A DNA stretch of 64,000 nt from an uncultured Acidobacteriota bacterium (GTDB taxonomy: Bacteria; Actinomycetota; Acidimicrobiia; Spongiisociales; ZC4RG35): positions 2,563 to 66,562 of the forward strand of contig CAWILU010000003.1 of assembly GCA_963837055.1 (NCBI GenBank), in the 5' to 3' direction. Shown here in pieces: positions 19,326 through 28,736 of this stretch (within the stretch, counting starts at the first letter, position 1; the number at the start of each line of letters is the position of its first letter). The notes under the pieces are model-generated. The model worked only from the letters and a program-made list of their open reading frames with translations. It was not told the origin of the DNA and searched no databases. The translations under genes were made by a program, and so were the position numbers.

Positions 19326-19373
19326 ATGAAGCACTTGTCCGCCGCCGCCTACGTACTCCTTCTTATCGAGTAG
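19326..19373 (+). CDS. ilv leader peptide MKHLSAAAYVLLLIE
   Basis: 15-codon ORF with a V-L-L-L-I run, downstream of TTGACA (19285-19290) and upstream of a terminator and ilvB. Confidence 0.85.
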   Translation: MKHLSAAAYVLLLIE

Positions 19374-19401
19374 CGCGCGCAAACAGACCTGCGTGCGCTC
19401 G

Positions 19402-19428
19402 ACCCTCCCCCCTGGAGGGTTTTTTGTT
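19402..19428 (+). terminator. Attenuator terminator of the ilv leader
   Basis: ACCCTCC-CCCCT-GGAGGGT followed by TTTTTGTT, just before the ilvB ATG. Confidence 0.85.
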
Positions 19429-21159: not shown

Positions 21160-21668
21160 TGCAGCACACCCTCACGGTCCTGGTCGAAGACAAACCCGGG
21201 GTCCTGGCGCGCATCTCTGCGATGTTCTCCAATCGGGCGTTCAACATCCACTCGCTGGCGGTCGGGCCCACCCATCAGGAAGGGCGATCGCGGATCACGC
21301 TGGTCGTAGATGCCCCGGAGCTGGAGCAGCTGAAGAAGCAGCTGAACAAACTGGTCAATGTGATCAAGGTCCAGGAGATGGAGCCGGCCGAAGCACTGGA
21401 GCGGGAAGTGATGATCATCCGGATCAGCGCCCAACCCGCCACTCGTGGCGAGGTGCGCGACACCGCGTCGCTGTTCGACGCCAGGGTCATCGACATCAGC
21501 TCGTCGGCCATGACATTCGAGGTGGCGGGGACACCTCAGCATCTGAGTACCTTCCTCGAGCATCTCGGGCCCTATGGCGTGATCGACTTGGTCAAGTCGG
21601 GCCGGATCGCCATGAAGCGGGAATCTGAGCTCACTCCGGCACCAGTGGTCGCAGGAGTCGGGAAATGA
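21159..21668 (+). CDS. ilvN: Acetolactate synthase small subunit
   Basis: MQHTLTVLVEDKPGVLARIS...FNIHSLAVG...KQLNKLVNV. Confidence 0.96.
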   Translation: MQHTLTVLVEDKPGVLARISAMFSNRAFNIHSLAVGPTHQEGRSRITLVVDAPELEQLKKQLNKLVNVIKVQEMEPAEALEREVMIIRISAQPATRGEVRDTASLFDARVIDISSSAMTFEVAGTPQHLSTFLEHLGPYGVIDLVKSGRIAMKRESELTPAPVVAGVGK

Positions 21669-21733
21669 CCCGTCCCTCCCGTCTCCTCTCACTGCTCGCC
21701 CTCCTCAGCCTTCTCGGCCTCGCTCTTATCTAG
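21665..21733 (+). CDS. leu leader peptide MTRPSRLLSLLALLSLLGLALI
   Basis: 22 codons with 10 Leu; ATG overlaps the ilvN stop; contains CGTCTCCT complementary to the leuA RBS AGGAGACG. Confidence 0.82.
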   Translation: MTRPSRLLSLLALLSLLGLALI

Positions 21734-21793: not shown

Positions 21794-22990
21794 ATGGAAG
21801 ACCGAGTAAGGATTTTCGACAGCACACTCAGAGACGGCGAACAGGCCCCGGGCATCGCCCTCGACCCCGACCAGAAGGTGGCGATCGCGACCCAACTGGC
21901 CCGTTTGGGGGTCGACATCATCGAGGCCGGGTTCCCCATCTCCTCGCCGGGTGACTTCCGGGCCGTGACCCGGATCGCCCAAGAGGTCCAGGGACCGACG
22001 ATCGCCGCTTTGGCACGGGCCCAGGCCCAGGACGTGGATAGGGCCTGGGAGGCGATCCGTGACGCTGCCGATCCTCGCATCCATGTCTTCCTGGCCACAT
22101 CGCCGATCCATATGCAGCACAAGCTGCGGATGAACGAGGAGGAGGTGATCACTACAGTCAAGGCGAACGTCGCCCGGGCGCGCGATCACACCGAAAATGT
22201 CGAGTACTCCCCCGAGGACGCCACCAGGTCGGACACGGATTTCGTCATCGCCGTCTGTCGGGCCGCCGTCGATGCAGGCGCCACCACGATCAACATCCCC
22301 GACACGGTGGGATACGCGACTCCCGCCGACTACGGAGCCTTGATCAGCCGGGTCGTCCAGGAGGTGAAGGGGACCCGGGACGACATCGTCGTCTCAGCCC
22401 ACTGTCACAACGACCTGGGTCTGGCTGTGGCCAACTCGCTGGCAGCGGTCGCCGCCGGCGCCCGTCAGGTCGAGGGAGCGATCAACGGGATCGGCGAGCG
22501 CGCCGGCAACACCTCGATCGAGGAAGTGGTGATGGCGTTGCGCGTACGCGCCGACGCCTATGGCGTCGGCGTCGGGGTCACCACGGAGGAGATCTACGAG
22601 ACATCGCGGCTGGTCTCAGAGCAGACCGGCTACCCCGTCCAGTACAACAAGGCGGTCGTCGGACGCAATGCCTTCGCTCATGAGTCGGGCATCCATCAGC
22701 ACGGTGTGCTCAGGGAGCGAACCACATACGAGATAATGGACCCGGTGGCCGTGGGAATGGGCAACTCTGTGATCGTGATCGGCAAGCACTCCGGCCGCGC
22801 CGCCTTCAAGCACTCATTGGACGAGCTCGGCATCGAGGTGACGGACAACGTATTCGAGACGGCCTTCACGCGGATGAAGGATGTGGCCGACACTTCCGGC
22901 GAAGTATCCCCGGATCAGATCCGGGCGATCGTCGAGGATGTGGTCTCCGGGATGGAGGTTCTGGACGGGGTCACGGCCTCGTTCGAATGA
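21794..22990 (+). CDS. leuA: 2-isopropylmalate synthase, short form without C-terminal regulatory domain
   Basis: [43 protein letters not shown]; 398 aa. Confidence 0.93.
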
Positions 22991-26093: not shown

Positions 26094-28127
26094 TCAGCCC
26101 CCGAAGCCCAAAGCCACCATCAGATCGTGAAACTGGTCCAAACGTAGTGACTGGGGGCCGTCGCTCAGCGCGTTCTCCGGATCGGGGTGGATTTCGACCA
26201 TGACCCCGTGCGCACCGATGGCCTGAGCAGCCAGCGCCAAGGGGGCAACCAGGTCACGGTCCCCGGCCGCATGGGAAGGGTCGACGATGACGGGGAGATG
26301 GGTCCGTTGCCGGAGTACCGGCACCGCACTCAAGTCCAGTGTGTTGCGGGTCGACGTCTCGAAGGTCCTGATCCCCCGCTCGCAGAGAAACACCTGCTGA
26401 TTCCCTTCCGAGAGGATGTACTCGGCCGCCTGCAAGAGCTCGTCGAGCGATGAGCTCATTCCCCGCTTCAGCATCACCGGACGATGTGCCCGTCCGGCTG
26501 CGGACAGCAGCGAGAAGTTCTGCATGTTGCGGGTGCCGATCTGGAGGATGTCGGCCTTGCGGGCGACCCCCTCCACGTCCTCAGGCGCCACAACTTCGGT
26601 GACCACGGGCAGCCCGTATGCCTTGCCTGCCTCGACCAGCATCTCGAGACCTTCATAACCAAGTCCCTGGAAGGAGTATGGGGACGTCCTCGGCTTGAAA
26701 CAGCCGCCTCGCAAGATGGAGCCGCCGCTCTCCTTGACCGCCTTGGCGGTTGTCATCACCTGGTCCCATGACTCGACTGCGCATGGCCCGGCGATCATCA
26801 CCAGGTCATCTCCACCGATCTTGACGCCGGCGACCTCGACGATCGTGTTCTGCTCCTTGTGACCGCGGCTCCCCAATTTGTAGCCCTTGGGGCTGGATGC
26901 GCTCGGCGCAAGGTCCGTGAGGGTGGAGCGGCCCTGGGGCACGACCTTCTTCGGTTTGCGCTCGATCGGCTTGGGGCGAAGATCACGGCTGGGATAGCTC
27001 CCCAGGACGCGAAGGAAGCGGACCTGACGCATCAAGGTCTCGAGGACCCCCTGCACCACGGGATCGGAGAGACTGCCGTCGAAGTCGAGGTAGAACAGCT
27101 CCTCTCTCGGGTTGTTGGGGATGGGCCGGGACTCGAGCATCACGAGGTTGATGTCGGCGTCGTGGAACACGGCAAGGGCATCCATCAGGGCACCGGGGTG
27201 GTTGCCCACGGCCATGACGATCGAGGTCTTGGTCGAGATCCCGTCGGGAACCTCCGCCGGCTCGGCAGCCACGACGATGAACCGGGTGAAGTTCTCATCC
27301 CGGTTGGCGATGCCCGTCTTGAGCACATCGAGATCGAACAGGCGGGCCGCCTCCTCGGAGGCGATGGCAGCGACCGTCGGATCGCCCAGGTCCCGAATCT
27401 TCTGCCCGGAGAGCGCGGTATCGGAGAAATAGACGACCTCGCAGTGATCGAGTTGTGCCAGGAACTCGGAGCACTGGGCCACCGCTTGGGGATGGCAGTA
27501 GATACGCCGCAGCTCCGAGATCGAGGCCCCTTCTACGCCCAGCAGGCAGTGCCGGATGCGGAAACGGACGTCACCGACGAAATGAAGACGGCTCTCCAAC
27601 AACAGGTCATAGACCTCGGAGATGGCTCCTGAGGTGGTGTTCTCGATGGGGAGCACCGCCACATCCGCCTCCTCGCGCTGCACCGCGGCGATCGCAGCCG
27701 CGAAGCTCGGGGCCCGGAGGTAGTTGACCGACATCCCCTTGTGATCGAAGTACTGCTGGGAGGCGAGCTGGCTGTAAGAGCCCTCGATTCCCTGAATAGC
27801 GACGGTCATCGCTCGCAGGGGCTTCTCCGCCCGTCCCAGGAACTCCTGCTGGATCCGCACCGAATCGTTGACGATCTCCCGCCACACGCGATTCACCAGA
27901 CCGGAGTCGAGGTCGTGCTCCATCCCCGCAGCGATCCGGTCTGAGATGAGGCCTTCCTCCCGGGATTGGTCACGGGAGGGGCGATCATGGATCCCCTTCT
28001 CCTTGGCGATGCGCAGACTGTGCGCCTTGCGCTCGGCGAGCAGCTTGAGGATGTCGGCGTCGATCCGGTCGATGTCGTCCCGGATCTGAGCTATGTCGTC
28101 GGTGTTCGGATCTGACTTGTCATTCAT
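26094..28127 (-). CDS. Fused chorismate mutase / prephenate dehydratase / ACT / DAHP synthase (type I-beta)
   Basis: Aro[20 protein letters not shown]...[54 protein letters not shown] in one 677-aa frame. Confidence 0.93.
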
Positions 28128-28196
28128 GTCGGTTCGCCTCGGCGCGTCTGAGCGGTGGATGGGTGGGGAGTAACGCGGGGGTGGGGTGAATCGGCG

Positions 28197-28271
28197 CTAG
28201 GCGCCGAAATAGACGAACCCGAAGAAGCGCCGCGAGATGGCGCCGGTGAGACGGGATGGGCTCGTCGTCAT
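28197..28271 (-). CDS. Phe/Tyr leader peptide MTTSPSRLTGAISRRFFGFVYFGA
   Basis: 24 codons with an FFGFVYF cluster, between the promoter and the CM-PDT-DAHPS gene. Confidence 0.85.
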   Translation of the reverse strand: MTTSPSRLTGAISRRFFGFVYFGA

Positions 28272-28280
28272 CTGAGCCGG

Positions 28281-28310
28281 ATTATCCGCTCCACCCCGTC
28301 GACATGTCAA
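28281..28310 (-). promoter_or_regulatory. SigA-type promoter of the phe leader
   Basis: TTGACA (28310-28305), 18 bp, GATAAT (28286-28281); 9 nt before the leader ATG. Confidence 0.7.
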
Positions 28311-28326: not shown

Positions 28327-28515
28327 ATGCGGGACTTGAGCAGGGCAATCGGCATCATCCTCGGGATCGTCGGTGTCATCTGGATCCTTCAGGGCCTCGA
28401 CTTCAAGATCGCACCACAGAGTTTCATGACCGGCGATCGGACTTGGGTGGCGCTAGGCGTGCTTGCGGTGCTCGTCGGCGGAGCCATGCTCTGGAAAGGG
28501 AAATCGAGGAAGTAG
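28327..28515 (+). CDS. Small two-TM membrane protein
   Basis: 62 aa, WILQG...SFMTG...W; TAAGTT -10-like box just upstream suggests leaderless mRNA. Confidence 0.7.
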   Translation: MRDLSRAIGIILGIVGVIWILQGLDFKIAPQSFMTGDRTWVALGVLAVLVGGAMLWKGKSRK

Positions 28516-28538
28516 CGAGTTCCCGACCGGTGGCTGGG

Positions 28539-28736
28539 TCAGGCCACTCCGGTATTGGACATTACGACGCCGACGGCCACCACCAGCGCGGCTACGCCTG
28601 CCGCTGACAGAACCGTGAGCCAGAACACCGGCCGGCCATCACGCCTTCTCTTCATGATCCAATCGGTCATCGCCCAAGACAGATGGGCTCCGAAAATCGA
28701 AGAAAGCGCTCCAAGCGCCAGGTGCATCGCGGTCAT
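28539..28736 (-). CDS. Small hypothetical membrane protein
   Basis: 65 aa, two hydrophobic segments separated by a basic loop. Confidence 0.5.
   Translation of the reverse strand: MTAMHLALGALSSIFGAHLSWAMTDWIMKRRRDGRPVFWLTVLSAAGVAALVVAVGVVMSNTGVA

Follow-up and report, generated by a model that had tools for sequence, protein, structure and literature searches.

A probable Phe/Tyr-sensing leader peptide with a stop-spanning hairpin and a C-rich tract upstream of an aromatic-pathway fusion gene in Acidimicrobiia

The leader and the fusion gene

The 64-kb stretch of DNA analysed here (the window; part of contig CAWILU010000003.1, assembly GCA_963837055.1) comes from an uncultured bacterium placed in the class Acidimicrobiia and carries a gene in which the chorismate mutase and prephenate dehydratase of the Phe branch are joined to 3-deoxy-D-arabino-heptulosonate 7-phosphate (DAHP) synthase, the first enzyme of the common aromatic pathway. 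Ahead of this gene lies a short open reading frame (ORF), rich in Phe and Tyr codons, that very probably encodes a leader peptide sensing these two amino acids. In the window numbering used throughout, leader and fusion gene are read on the minus strand and comprise the following features:

28281 to 28310, minus strand: σ70-type promoter, with TTGACA at 28310-28305, an 18-nt spacer and GATAAT at 28286-28281
28197 to 28271, minus strand: leader ORF, with ATG at 28271-28269, 24 codons (MTTSPSRLTGAISRRFFGFVYFGA) and the stop codon TAG at 28199-28197
28206 to 28226, minus strand: sensor block, codons 16-22, TTC TTC GGG TTC GTC TAT TTC (FFGFVYF)
28191 to 28207, minus strand: hairpin over the stop codon, with 5' arm UCGGCGC (28207-28201), loop CUA and 3' arm GCGCCGA (28197-28191)
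28146 to 28190, minus strand: C-rich, G-poor tract of 45 nt (26 C, 4 G), possibly a rut site on which Rho loads
28175 to 28188, minus strand: conserved C-box CACCCCACCCCCGC in the 5' part of the tract, 2 nt past the hairpin
28137 to 28145, minus strand: second copy of the 3' arm, GCGCCGAGG, fused to the GAGG Shine-Dalgarno (SD) sequence of the fusion gene at 28140-28137
26094 to 28127, minus strand: fusion gene of 677 residues, main ATG at 28127-28125, with the domains CM_2, PDT, ACT and DAHP_synth_1

The positions that the original prediction had assigned to the promoter, the upstream ORF (uORF) and the pairing elements were all confirmed on the minus strand. The promoter matches at 11 of 12 positions and is the sole promoter-like match between 27500 and 29000, where shuffled sequences gave a mean of 0.3. 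The gap between GATAAT and the start codon is 9 nt, so that the transcript would be leaderless or carry a 5' untranslated region of 0-3 nt. The predicted peptide ends in RRFFGFVYFGA, and the whole leader element is compact (about 145 nt); genome-wide, Phe and Tyr account for 2.9% and 1.7% of codons, respectively (4.6% combined). Regarding the fusion gene, its four domains were recognised by Pfam with E-values of 2.6e-15 (CM_2), 1.8e-54 (PDT), 3.4e-4 (ACT) and 1.3e-80 (DAHP_synth_1), the ACT match of 20.8 bits lying under Pfam's 27-bit cut-off. A literature search for a trifunctional chorismate mutase/prephenate dehydratase/DAHP synthase fusion found no description.

Conservation of the peptide, the hairpin and the C-rich tract

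The leader and the fusion gene occur together across the genomes that were searched. Of 25 genomes of the window's genus, 19 gave a match covering at least 600 of the 677 residues of the fusion, as opposed to none of the 16 other-family genomes of the same draw, and the uORF was present in all 18 same-genus loci with sufficient upstream DNA. A degenerate pattern of FFGFVYFGA plus stop, allowing up to 3 mismatches, matched in 29 of 401 genomes of the order, two of these matches being unrelated and inside a long ORF; the reversed pattern, used as a control, gave 0 matches. When all species genomes were searched for the exact Tyr-Phe-Gly-Ala-stop-hairpin motif, 58 stretches were obtained, of which 53 are leaders and 5 are chance occurrences in other phyla. 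An ORF that begins with chorismate mutase starts 42-87 nt past the uORF stop in 50 of the 53 leaders, the remaining three loci ending too early to show a downstream ORF, and 33 of these downstream ORFs are complete, with lengths of 660-694 residues.

A covariance model of the Phe/Tyr (F/Y) block, the hairpin and the C-box (R1) was run on 151 family genomes and detected a single copy in each of 62, distributed over 14 of the 38 genera of the family. The two weakest hits, which are the sole hits in their genera and lie in ordinary coding DNA, were judged by eye to be false; genuine leaders are thus found in 12 of the 38 genera and, in addition, in one genome of a second family (L034), which has both the leader and the fusion. 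A full-length relative of the fusion is present in 62 of these 151 genomes and also in one from the second family. When the R1 scan was tabulated by hand against the protein search, the leader was found in 60 of the 62 fusion-bearing genomes, the other two (G018 and G320) having the gene at a contig edge, and a genuine leader was found in none of the 89 family genomes without the fusion. These tallies (the 25-genome genus draw, the 401 genomes of the order and the 151 genomes of the family) include the unpublished genomes G018, G027, G216, G269 and G452, on which none of the conclusions depends.

The original prediction of a near-leaderless, F/Y-rich leader ORF before a Phe/aromatic fusion is supported by these genomes. 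Among 50 leaders from other genomes, 48 share the layout TTGAC., 16-19 nt,.A...T, 4-10 nt, ATG or GTG, in which the start codon is in frame and follows a -10-like hexamer by 4-10 nt, so that a 5' end at or close to the start codon is predicted. The length of the leader ORF in the 48 leaders ranges from 21 to 32 codons, with 24 codons in 29 of them. Within this conserved frame the N-terminal two thirds of the peptide vary freely. In the window's genus, there is little or no variation in the last 11 codons and in the hairpin, the N-terminal 13 codons are free to change, and among genera the peptides diverge further, as in M[TK]TSP...RRFFGFVYFGA, MKATWTLNFFGAAQRFFGFAYYFYFGA, MNRVRITEGFLFAFYGRVYFGA, MSRDAAAIQDTRSFGAFYFRGYFGA and ...AAFFRGYFGV. 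The last 10 codons of 69 distinct leader ends nevertheless hold 3-6 Phe or Tyr codons (median 5) and no Trp codon. Before the stop, 59 of these ends read YFGA, eight YFGV, one FFGA and one YFGS, and the most conserved aromatic codons are the two closest to the stop. Synonymous variation is present in these ends (TTC 222 and TTT 18; TAT 60 and TAC 36), as are exchanges between Phe and Tyr, and TAT is commoner than in the long ORFs of the genome, where it makes up 32% of Tyr codons. Such a pattern is that expected of a leader peptide selected for its regulatory codons alone; we infer that the leader ORF is translated and that ribosome stalling would be the signal.

The second conserved part is a 7-bp hairpin whose 5' arm is drawn from the last Phe, Gly and Ala codons and whose 3' arm opens with the G of UAG, the stop codon thereby being shared between the loop and the first pair of the 3' arm. 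The hairpin alone folds at -12.2 kcal/mol, and its mean pair probability in partition-function folds of 49 leaders is 0.96. In an alignment of 69 distinct sequences, 99.4% of the cells are in standard pairs, compared to 18-50% when the partner is slid by 1-3 columns. Changes on both sides, with U:G intermediates also seen, were detected in 2 of the 7 pairs: one C:G pair is replaced by U:A in a leader of family f9, and the closing C:G pair is replaced by U:A in one genus together with a simultaneous change of the stop codon from UAG to UGA. Loops of 3 to 5 nt occur, all three stop codons (UAG, UAA and UGA) are used, a 5-bp version exists in some genera and the loop base that forms the third position of the last sense codon can be any of the four letters. 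The hairpin thus appears to be a conserved structure, for which the evidence from covariation is modest because 4 of the 7 pairs never vary and the alignment was moreover fitted to the model.

The third part is the C-rich, G-poor tract, which was noticed in the original prediction and proved to be conserved. In the window it begins 1 nt past the hairpin and 9 nt past the stop codon. The spacers between uORF and gene average 0.51 C, 0.13 G and 0.21 T (n=50); their sequence and length vary and they are pyrimidine-rich and G-poor throughout. At their 5' end, 2-5 nt past the hairpin in all genera, stands the C-box, with the consensus CACC(C/U)CACC(C/U)CCGC and a nearly invariant CCGC; in the most distant members (L098, L109, L155 and L034) it decays to C/U-rich sequence ending in CGC. 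By contrast, the second copy of the 3' arm, GCGCCGAGG, is invariant within the window's genus alone and is replaced elsewhere by, for instance, GACGCAACGCGUC or unrelated sequence.

In the genome of the window (2.6 Mb, 64% G+C), a skew as strong as that of the tract occurs in just 4.9e-5 of 45-nt windows, which make up 42 distinct loci. The other 41 loci are mostly coding or repeat DNA, and C-rich tracts as a general theme of leaders were therefore rejected. The same screen brought up elements at G000:C1:65281, C4:448605, C6:621621 and C7:278574 in which a G/T-rich arm (GTGAGTTGTGAG...GGGT) faces a CCCACCACCCACCACCC arm; these look like a dispersed palindromic repeat family. A recurring hairpin-plus-C-box module before other operons was likewise rejected: a hairpin-plus-box model (R2) run on 5 genomes found the Phe leader only, the next hits being noise of at most 20 bits in coding DNA or beside a tRNA.

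In agreement with the original prediction, no hairpin followed by a U-tract was found. The number of terminator-like sites (hairpin and T-run) between 27500 and 29000 is 0, and the same type of scan gave 0 of 49 Phe leaders as opposed to 3 of 3 control leaders of the same genome (ilv, trp and cys). As all three controls and none of the Phe leaders are caught, the missing terminator is specific to the Phe leader. A cmscan of 20000-42000 with E up to 1 found no Rfam match inside 28128-28310.

Folding of the leader and its possible read-out

The original prediction had proposed a switch in which TCGGCGC pairs either with the GCGCCGA just after the stop or with the second copy at the SD sequence. 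This switch was examined by partition-function folding of 49 leaders, each sequence beginning 2 nt ahead of the uORF and extending 30 nt into the gene, and by folds in which a 28-nt ribosome footprint was forced unpaired at six A-site positions (five codons of the F/Y block and the stop). The two-partner switch is not supported as a family-wide mechanism: the pairing of the SD window with the 5' arm averages 0.007 over the 49 leaders, and when the 5' arm of the window leader is made to pair with the second GCGCCGA, the ensemble is 2.5 kcal/mol less favourable than with the local hairpin, in addition to the restriction of GCGCCGAGG to one genus. Furthermore, since a ribosome moving 5' to 3' that masks the first GCGCCGA would also mask TCGGCGC, stalling could not choose between the two helices. 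The whole window leader is not unusually stable (z = -1.07).

Other switches found no consistent support in these folds either. On average, the SD sequence is paired with the N-terminal region of the uORF at 0.14, with the F/Y block at 0.08 and with the C tract at 0.21, and the partner differs by leader: many leaders are predicted to use the C tract and some the F/Y block, and the RR codons take this part in a portion of the window's genus. The mean accessibility of the SD sequence is 0.44 in the free state and 0.43-0.48 in the stalled states (48 leaders), so that stall-dependent unmasking of the SD sequence is not a consistent effect across the family. When the ribosome is placed on the last Phe codon, the freed 3' arm is paired at a mean of 0.36 with inconsistent partners, and the C-box is predicted to be unpaired to a similar degree in the free state (0.66) and with a stalled ribosome (0.69); a four-segment switch of the ermC type, with capture of the C tract by the freed 3' arm and release of the SD sequence, was thus discarded. 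No consistent pair of antiterminator and terminator alternatives chosen by ribosome position was found in the footprint-constrained folds. In the minimum free energy (MFE) structure of the window, the end of the C-box and the motif ACGCG(C/U)C close to the SD sequence form a helix, CGCGUU/GACGCG, which two genera could make; it was dropped because leaders with CCGCUG or CCGCGCC, inspected by eye, lack the pairing. Taken together, the folds predict no RNA switch, the position of the ribosome altering only the opening of the hairpin and the distance to the C-box.

We tentatively favour, at somewhat less than an even chance, a read-out by Rho, which would act on the C-rich tract and whose access would be controlled by a ribosome held at the last Tyr and Phe codons. 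When charged Phe- and Tyr-tRNA are plentiful, the ribosome would reach UAG and leave, the hairpin would close and the C-rich tract would be bare, so that Rho could load on it and end transcription near the start of the fusion gene. When the charging of either tRNA is low, the ribosome would be held on the aromatic codons; at the final pair, Tyr at -4 and Phe at -3 relative to the stop codon, its leading edge would lie over the hairpin and beside the C-box, and it would keep the hairpin open and hinder the loading of Rho in the manner of tna, allowing RNA polymerase to get to the fusion gene. Rho is favoured because the family-wide non-coding features are a hairpin that closes behind the ribosome and a bare C tract at a fixed short distance, because the most conserved aromatic codons adjoin the hairpin and no alternative helix exists, and because such gating resembles that of tna, which has already been suggested for terminator-less actinobacterial Cys leaders. 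The C-rich, G-poor composition of the spacers, the predicted unpaired state of the C-box and the presence of an encoded Rho RNA-binding domain also speak for it. A narrower version, in which the stop-loop hairpin and the C-box form a switch-less Rho platform opened and closed directly by the parked ribosome, seems to us a doubtful but genuine possibility. If this were true, tna-type gating would have been turned to starvation sensing for a biosynthetic gene, and the leader would be one half of a design that puts two DAHP synthase isozymes under leaders of their own, one for Phe/Tyr and a classical one for Trp.

Several points weigh against Rho-dependent attenuation. When the last Phe codon occupies the A site, the ribosome should extend only about 3-6 nt past the stop codon. 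The C-box begins at +12, about 8 nt beyond this edge, so that the steric block would be incomplete and most of the tract exposed. Stalling on the first two Phe codons would not alter the hairpin or the tract relative to the unstalled state, and folding gives no stall-dependent change in C-box accessibility. With a length of about 45-70 nt, the G-poor tract falls short of what a canonical rut site would occupy. The genomes compared are all relatives, so that the counts of leaders are not independent and show linkage within a clade. Four metatranscriptome RNA runs contain parts of the stretch as contigs covering the leader; the contig ends at 28271 and 28273 come from a single-nucleotide polymorphism bubble at 28272 and the remaining breaks fall in strain-variable sequence, and both are uninformative on 5' and 3' ends or on expression. 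Finally, the rho gene (G000:C4:526929-530141, L168), which encodes the Rho RNA-binding domain at G000:C4:528429-528641, reads in the 7-contig assembly as two overlapping frames; this is probably an assembly indel, or possibly a real frameshift, as is the similar split of trpE (G000:C6, L169). It should also be noted that the N-terminal part of rho carries an Arg/Gly-rich insertion ahead of the RNA-binding domain.

The main rival, a rather less probable reading than Rho-dependent attenuation and also put forward in the original prediction, is translational attenuation, in which the resting SD sequence would be paired with the uORF (RR and Phe codons) or with the pyrimidine tract and would be freed by a stall in the F/Y block, a drop in transcription being secondary polarity. 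UUC-rich RNA is naturally complementary to the purine-rich SD sequence, and the experimentally studied actinobacterial precedent acts in this way according to the passages available from that study (bioRxiv 10.1101/834739). In six leaders that are a subset of the window's genus (L060, L078, L081, L096, L085 and L092), the predicted pairing of the SD sequence with either the RR codons or the F/Y block is 0.46-0.73, and a ribosome at the first Phe-Phe is predicted to raise the unpaired probability of the SD sequence from 0.17-0.38 to 0.46-0.66. The MFE structure of the window likewise has a helix between the F-G-F-V codons and GAGGCGAACC, and the invariance of GCGCCGAGG within the genus would be accounted for. 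However, in the window itself the SD sequence pairs with the F/Y block at just 0.23, the mean SD accessibility over the 48 leaders is flat, the predicted partner changes from leader to leader and the RR-codon partner varies (CAGCGC, AGGCGC, CGCCGC) without a compensating change in the invariant GCGCCGAGG; moreover, masking gives no role to the family-wide hairpin and C-box. A mixed mechanism, with unmasking of the SD sequence followed by protection from Rho, is possible. Another reading is that a trans-acting factor (an RNA-binding protein or a G-rich small RNA) binds the C-box with or without the hairpin and carries the main regulatory signal, the uORF only modulating access. In its favour, every genus keeps the C-box sequence at a set distance of 2-5 nt from the hairpin, no pairing of the C-box in cis is predicted and folding shows no ribosome-dependent switch, but the decay of the C-box to C/U-rich sequence in the four most distant members fits composition rather than a specific site, and the single copy of the hairpin-plus-box in each of the 5 genomes means that there is no regulon, which makes such a factor improbable.

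Two further explanations were considered. That the uORF is no sensor, being a constitutive leaderless mini-ORF or the 5' part of a structured leader (for mRNA stability, ribosome recruitment or a pause hairpin) whose F/Y richness is a by-product of nucleotide constraint, could draw on the F-G-A end, partly dictated by the 5' arm of the hairpin, and on the invariance of the block within the genus even at synonymous sites. We consider it very improbable, since the aromatic codons outside the hairpin shift yet remain aromatic (FFGFVY, FYGHVY, FGFAYFY, TFFFRGY, AAFFRGY), TTC/TTT and TAT/TAC are exchanged, five Phe/Tyr in 7 codons are very unlikely at a combined usage of 4.6%, the downstream gene makes exactly the amino acids of the Phe/Tyr pathway, and W-rich, C-rich and branched-chain-amino-acid-rich leaders serve the matching pathways in the same genome. 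Termination of a non-canonical intrinsic type, or a long pause, at the stop hairpin without a U-tract, prevented by a ribosome on the 5' arm, is extremely unlikely, even though the hairpin is stable at -12.2 kcal/mol, is conserved with covariation and overlaps the end of the leader ORF like segment 1:2 of classical attenuators. The 8-10 nt that follow it are C-rich (UUCACCCCAC) and would hold the transcript in a strong RNA:DNA hybrid, contrary to what release requires; the genome uses ordinary hairpin-plus-U-tract terminators in three other leaders; and a ribosome at the stop would also cover the hairpin, giving the same outcome with plentiful or scarce tRNA.

Other leaders of the genome and known systems

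The remaining features of the window and the leaders found elsewhere in the genome are as follows:

28327 to 28515, plus strand: small membrane-protein ORF, divergent from the leader
19326 to 19373, plus strand: ilv (branched-chain amino acid) leader MKHLSAAAYVLLLIE, behind a TTGACA promoter-like site, upstream of ilvB
19401 to 19421, plus strand: ilv terminator-like hairpin GACCCTCCCCCCTGGAGGGTT and T-run, just before the acetolactate synthase gene
21665 to 21733, plus strand: Leu-rich uORF MTRPSRLLSLLALLSLLGLALI with 10 Leu and its own GGAG, overlapping the stop of the preceding gene
G000:C6:412656-420180 (L169, L171), minus strand: Trp leader MSRTSISRAGHTWWWTWRAPEVASVG (...HTWWWTW...), with hairpin and U-tract, before trpE
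G000:C7:69821-69889 (L170), plus strand: Cys leader MTCPPTSSACCCLCRCAAVPCG (...ACCCLCRC...), with hairpin and U-tract, upstream of TusA and DsrE-like sulfur-transfer genes

Because of the divergent ORF, the Phe/Tyr leader fills the intergenic gap. Adjoining this ORF, a weak cobalamin riboswitch match at 28459-28650 on the plus strand (20.5 bits against a gathering threshold of 31.5, E = 0.16) is probably a chance match. When the whole genome was screened for short ORFs that lie close to a promoter and contain an amino-acid run, the Phe, Trp and Cys leaders were recovered, all other hits being chance ORFs; the screen used a strict promoter pattern, which the ilv and leu leaders escaped. The Leu-rich uORF lies 60 nt before an HMGL-like (leuA-type) gene at 21794, and no terminator-like site was found there. 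The original prediction had counted three distinct ribosome-sensing switches within 9 kb: the ilv leader, as a classical one with a terminator, and the Leu-rich uORF are indeed seen.

The trp operon, trpE-D-C-F-B-A, ends in a second DAHP synthase with an N-terminal ferredoxin-like domain. With the Phe/Tyr leader at the fusion and the Trp leader at the trp operon, each of the two DAHP synthase isozymes thus stands behind a leader of its own, and the flux of the common aromatic pathway may be divided among isozymes by amino-acid-specific leaders and not by repressors. Terminator-type ilv, trp and cys leaders exist beside a terminator-less Phe/Tyr design that is kept in many genera; the difference is thus one under selection and no quirk of the lineage.

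In E. coli, as here, a hairpin overlaps the end of the pheL leader ORF and the ribosome is presumed to stall on scarce Phe-tRNA. The likeness extends to a run of Phe codons near the stop upstream of chorismate mutase/prephenate dehydratase, as pheL-pheA/pheST is presented in excerpts of PMC11802643. Unlike pheL, the present leader has no U-tract terminator, no predicted antiterminator and no match to the Rfam Phe_leader; its transcript would start at or next to the start codon, Tyr is invariant in the block and the regulated gene includes DAHP synthase.

The aroR leader of Corynebacterium glutamicum is said to have been described by Neshat et al. in 2014. It lies upstream of aroF, which encodes a DAHP synthase, contains Phe-Tyr-Phe and is induced by Phe limitation through ribosome stalling, as far as the account in parts of PMC11802643 goes. 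On that account it is the closest actinobacterial likeness, a Phe-Tyr-Phe block before a DAHP synthase gene, so that Phe/Tyr leaders are not new to the Actinomycetota overall. It is described there as transcription attenuation and belongs to a different class, the Actinomycetes; 4-6 aromatic codons, a stop-embedded hairpin, a C-box, the lack of a terminator and a triple fusion downstream characterise the present element and not aroR. An earlier survey (Seliverstov et al. 2005) lists, in the sections available, no Phe/Tyr RNA element in the Actinobacteria known at that time (PMC1262725).

The leaderless poly-Cys short ORFs of mycobacteria (the 'Cys ribulon') resemble the present leader in their 3' regulatory codons, in the lack of an intrinsic terminator, in the untranslated spacer of about 60-100 nt before the gene and in belonging to the same phylum (bioRxiv 10.1101/834739, partial text). 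In the same source, nearly the whole Cys leader forms a stable duplex in which Cys codons pair with the SD sequence, whereas no conserved pairing of this kind is predicted here and the conserved parts are a local hairpin and an unpaired C-rich box. The E. coli tnaC-tnaA system likewise combines a leader peptide with a C-rich Rho entry site by the stop and no intrinsic terminator. It differs in being catabolic and in that arrest occurs at the stop through the nascent peptide and free Trp instead of uncharged tRNA; here the stall would come 3-4 codons before the stop, and a role of Rho would be analogous. The tna model, in which a ribosome at the leader end denies access to Rho, was itself invoked for terminator-less actinobacterial Cys leaders in passages of PMC1262725. 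Further precedents, as given in portions of the respective texts, are a terminator-type attenuator at ilvB1 of Mycobacterium tuberculosis, with a mention of translational attenuation (2026, PMC13236596), and, in general terms, Rut sites with a C>G bias and YC-rich sequence together with Rho-dependent attenuation via uORFs (PMC13650167).

Leader-peptide attenuation is textbook knowledge in proteobacteria and patchily known in Actinomycetota; for the Acidimicrobiia, a large uncultured soil lineage, our literature search agreed with the original prediction in finding no description that joins the class and a leader peptide. With three sharp conserved parts and no predicted switch, the present leader offers a clean test case for the ways in which Rho or translation initiation can respond to a stalled ribosome in bacteria of high G+C content. 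As a probable Phe/Tyr leader-peptide attenuator it is of a known general kind, in a lineage without a described example, and its architecture, which combines a predicted leaderless start, a stop-embedded hairpin and a C-box with no terminator and no predicted switch, differs from the types described so far.

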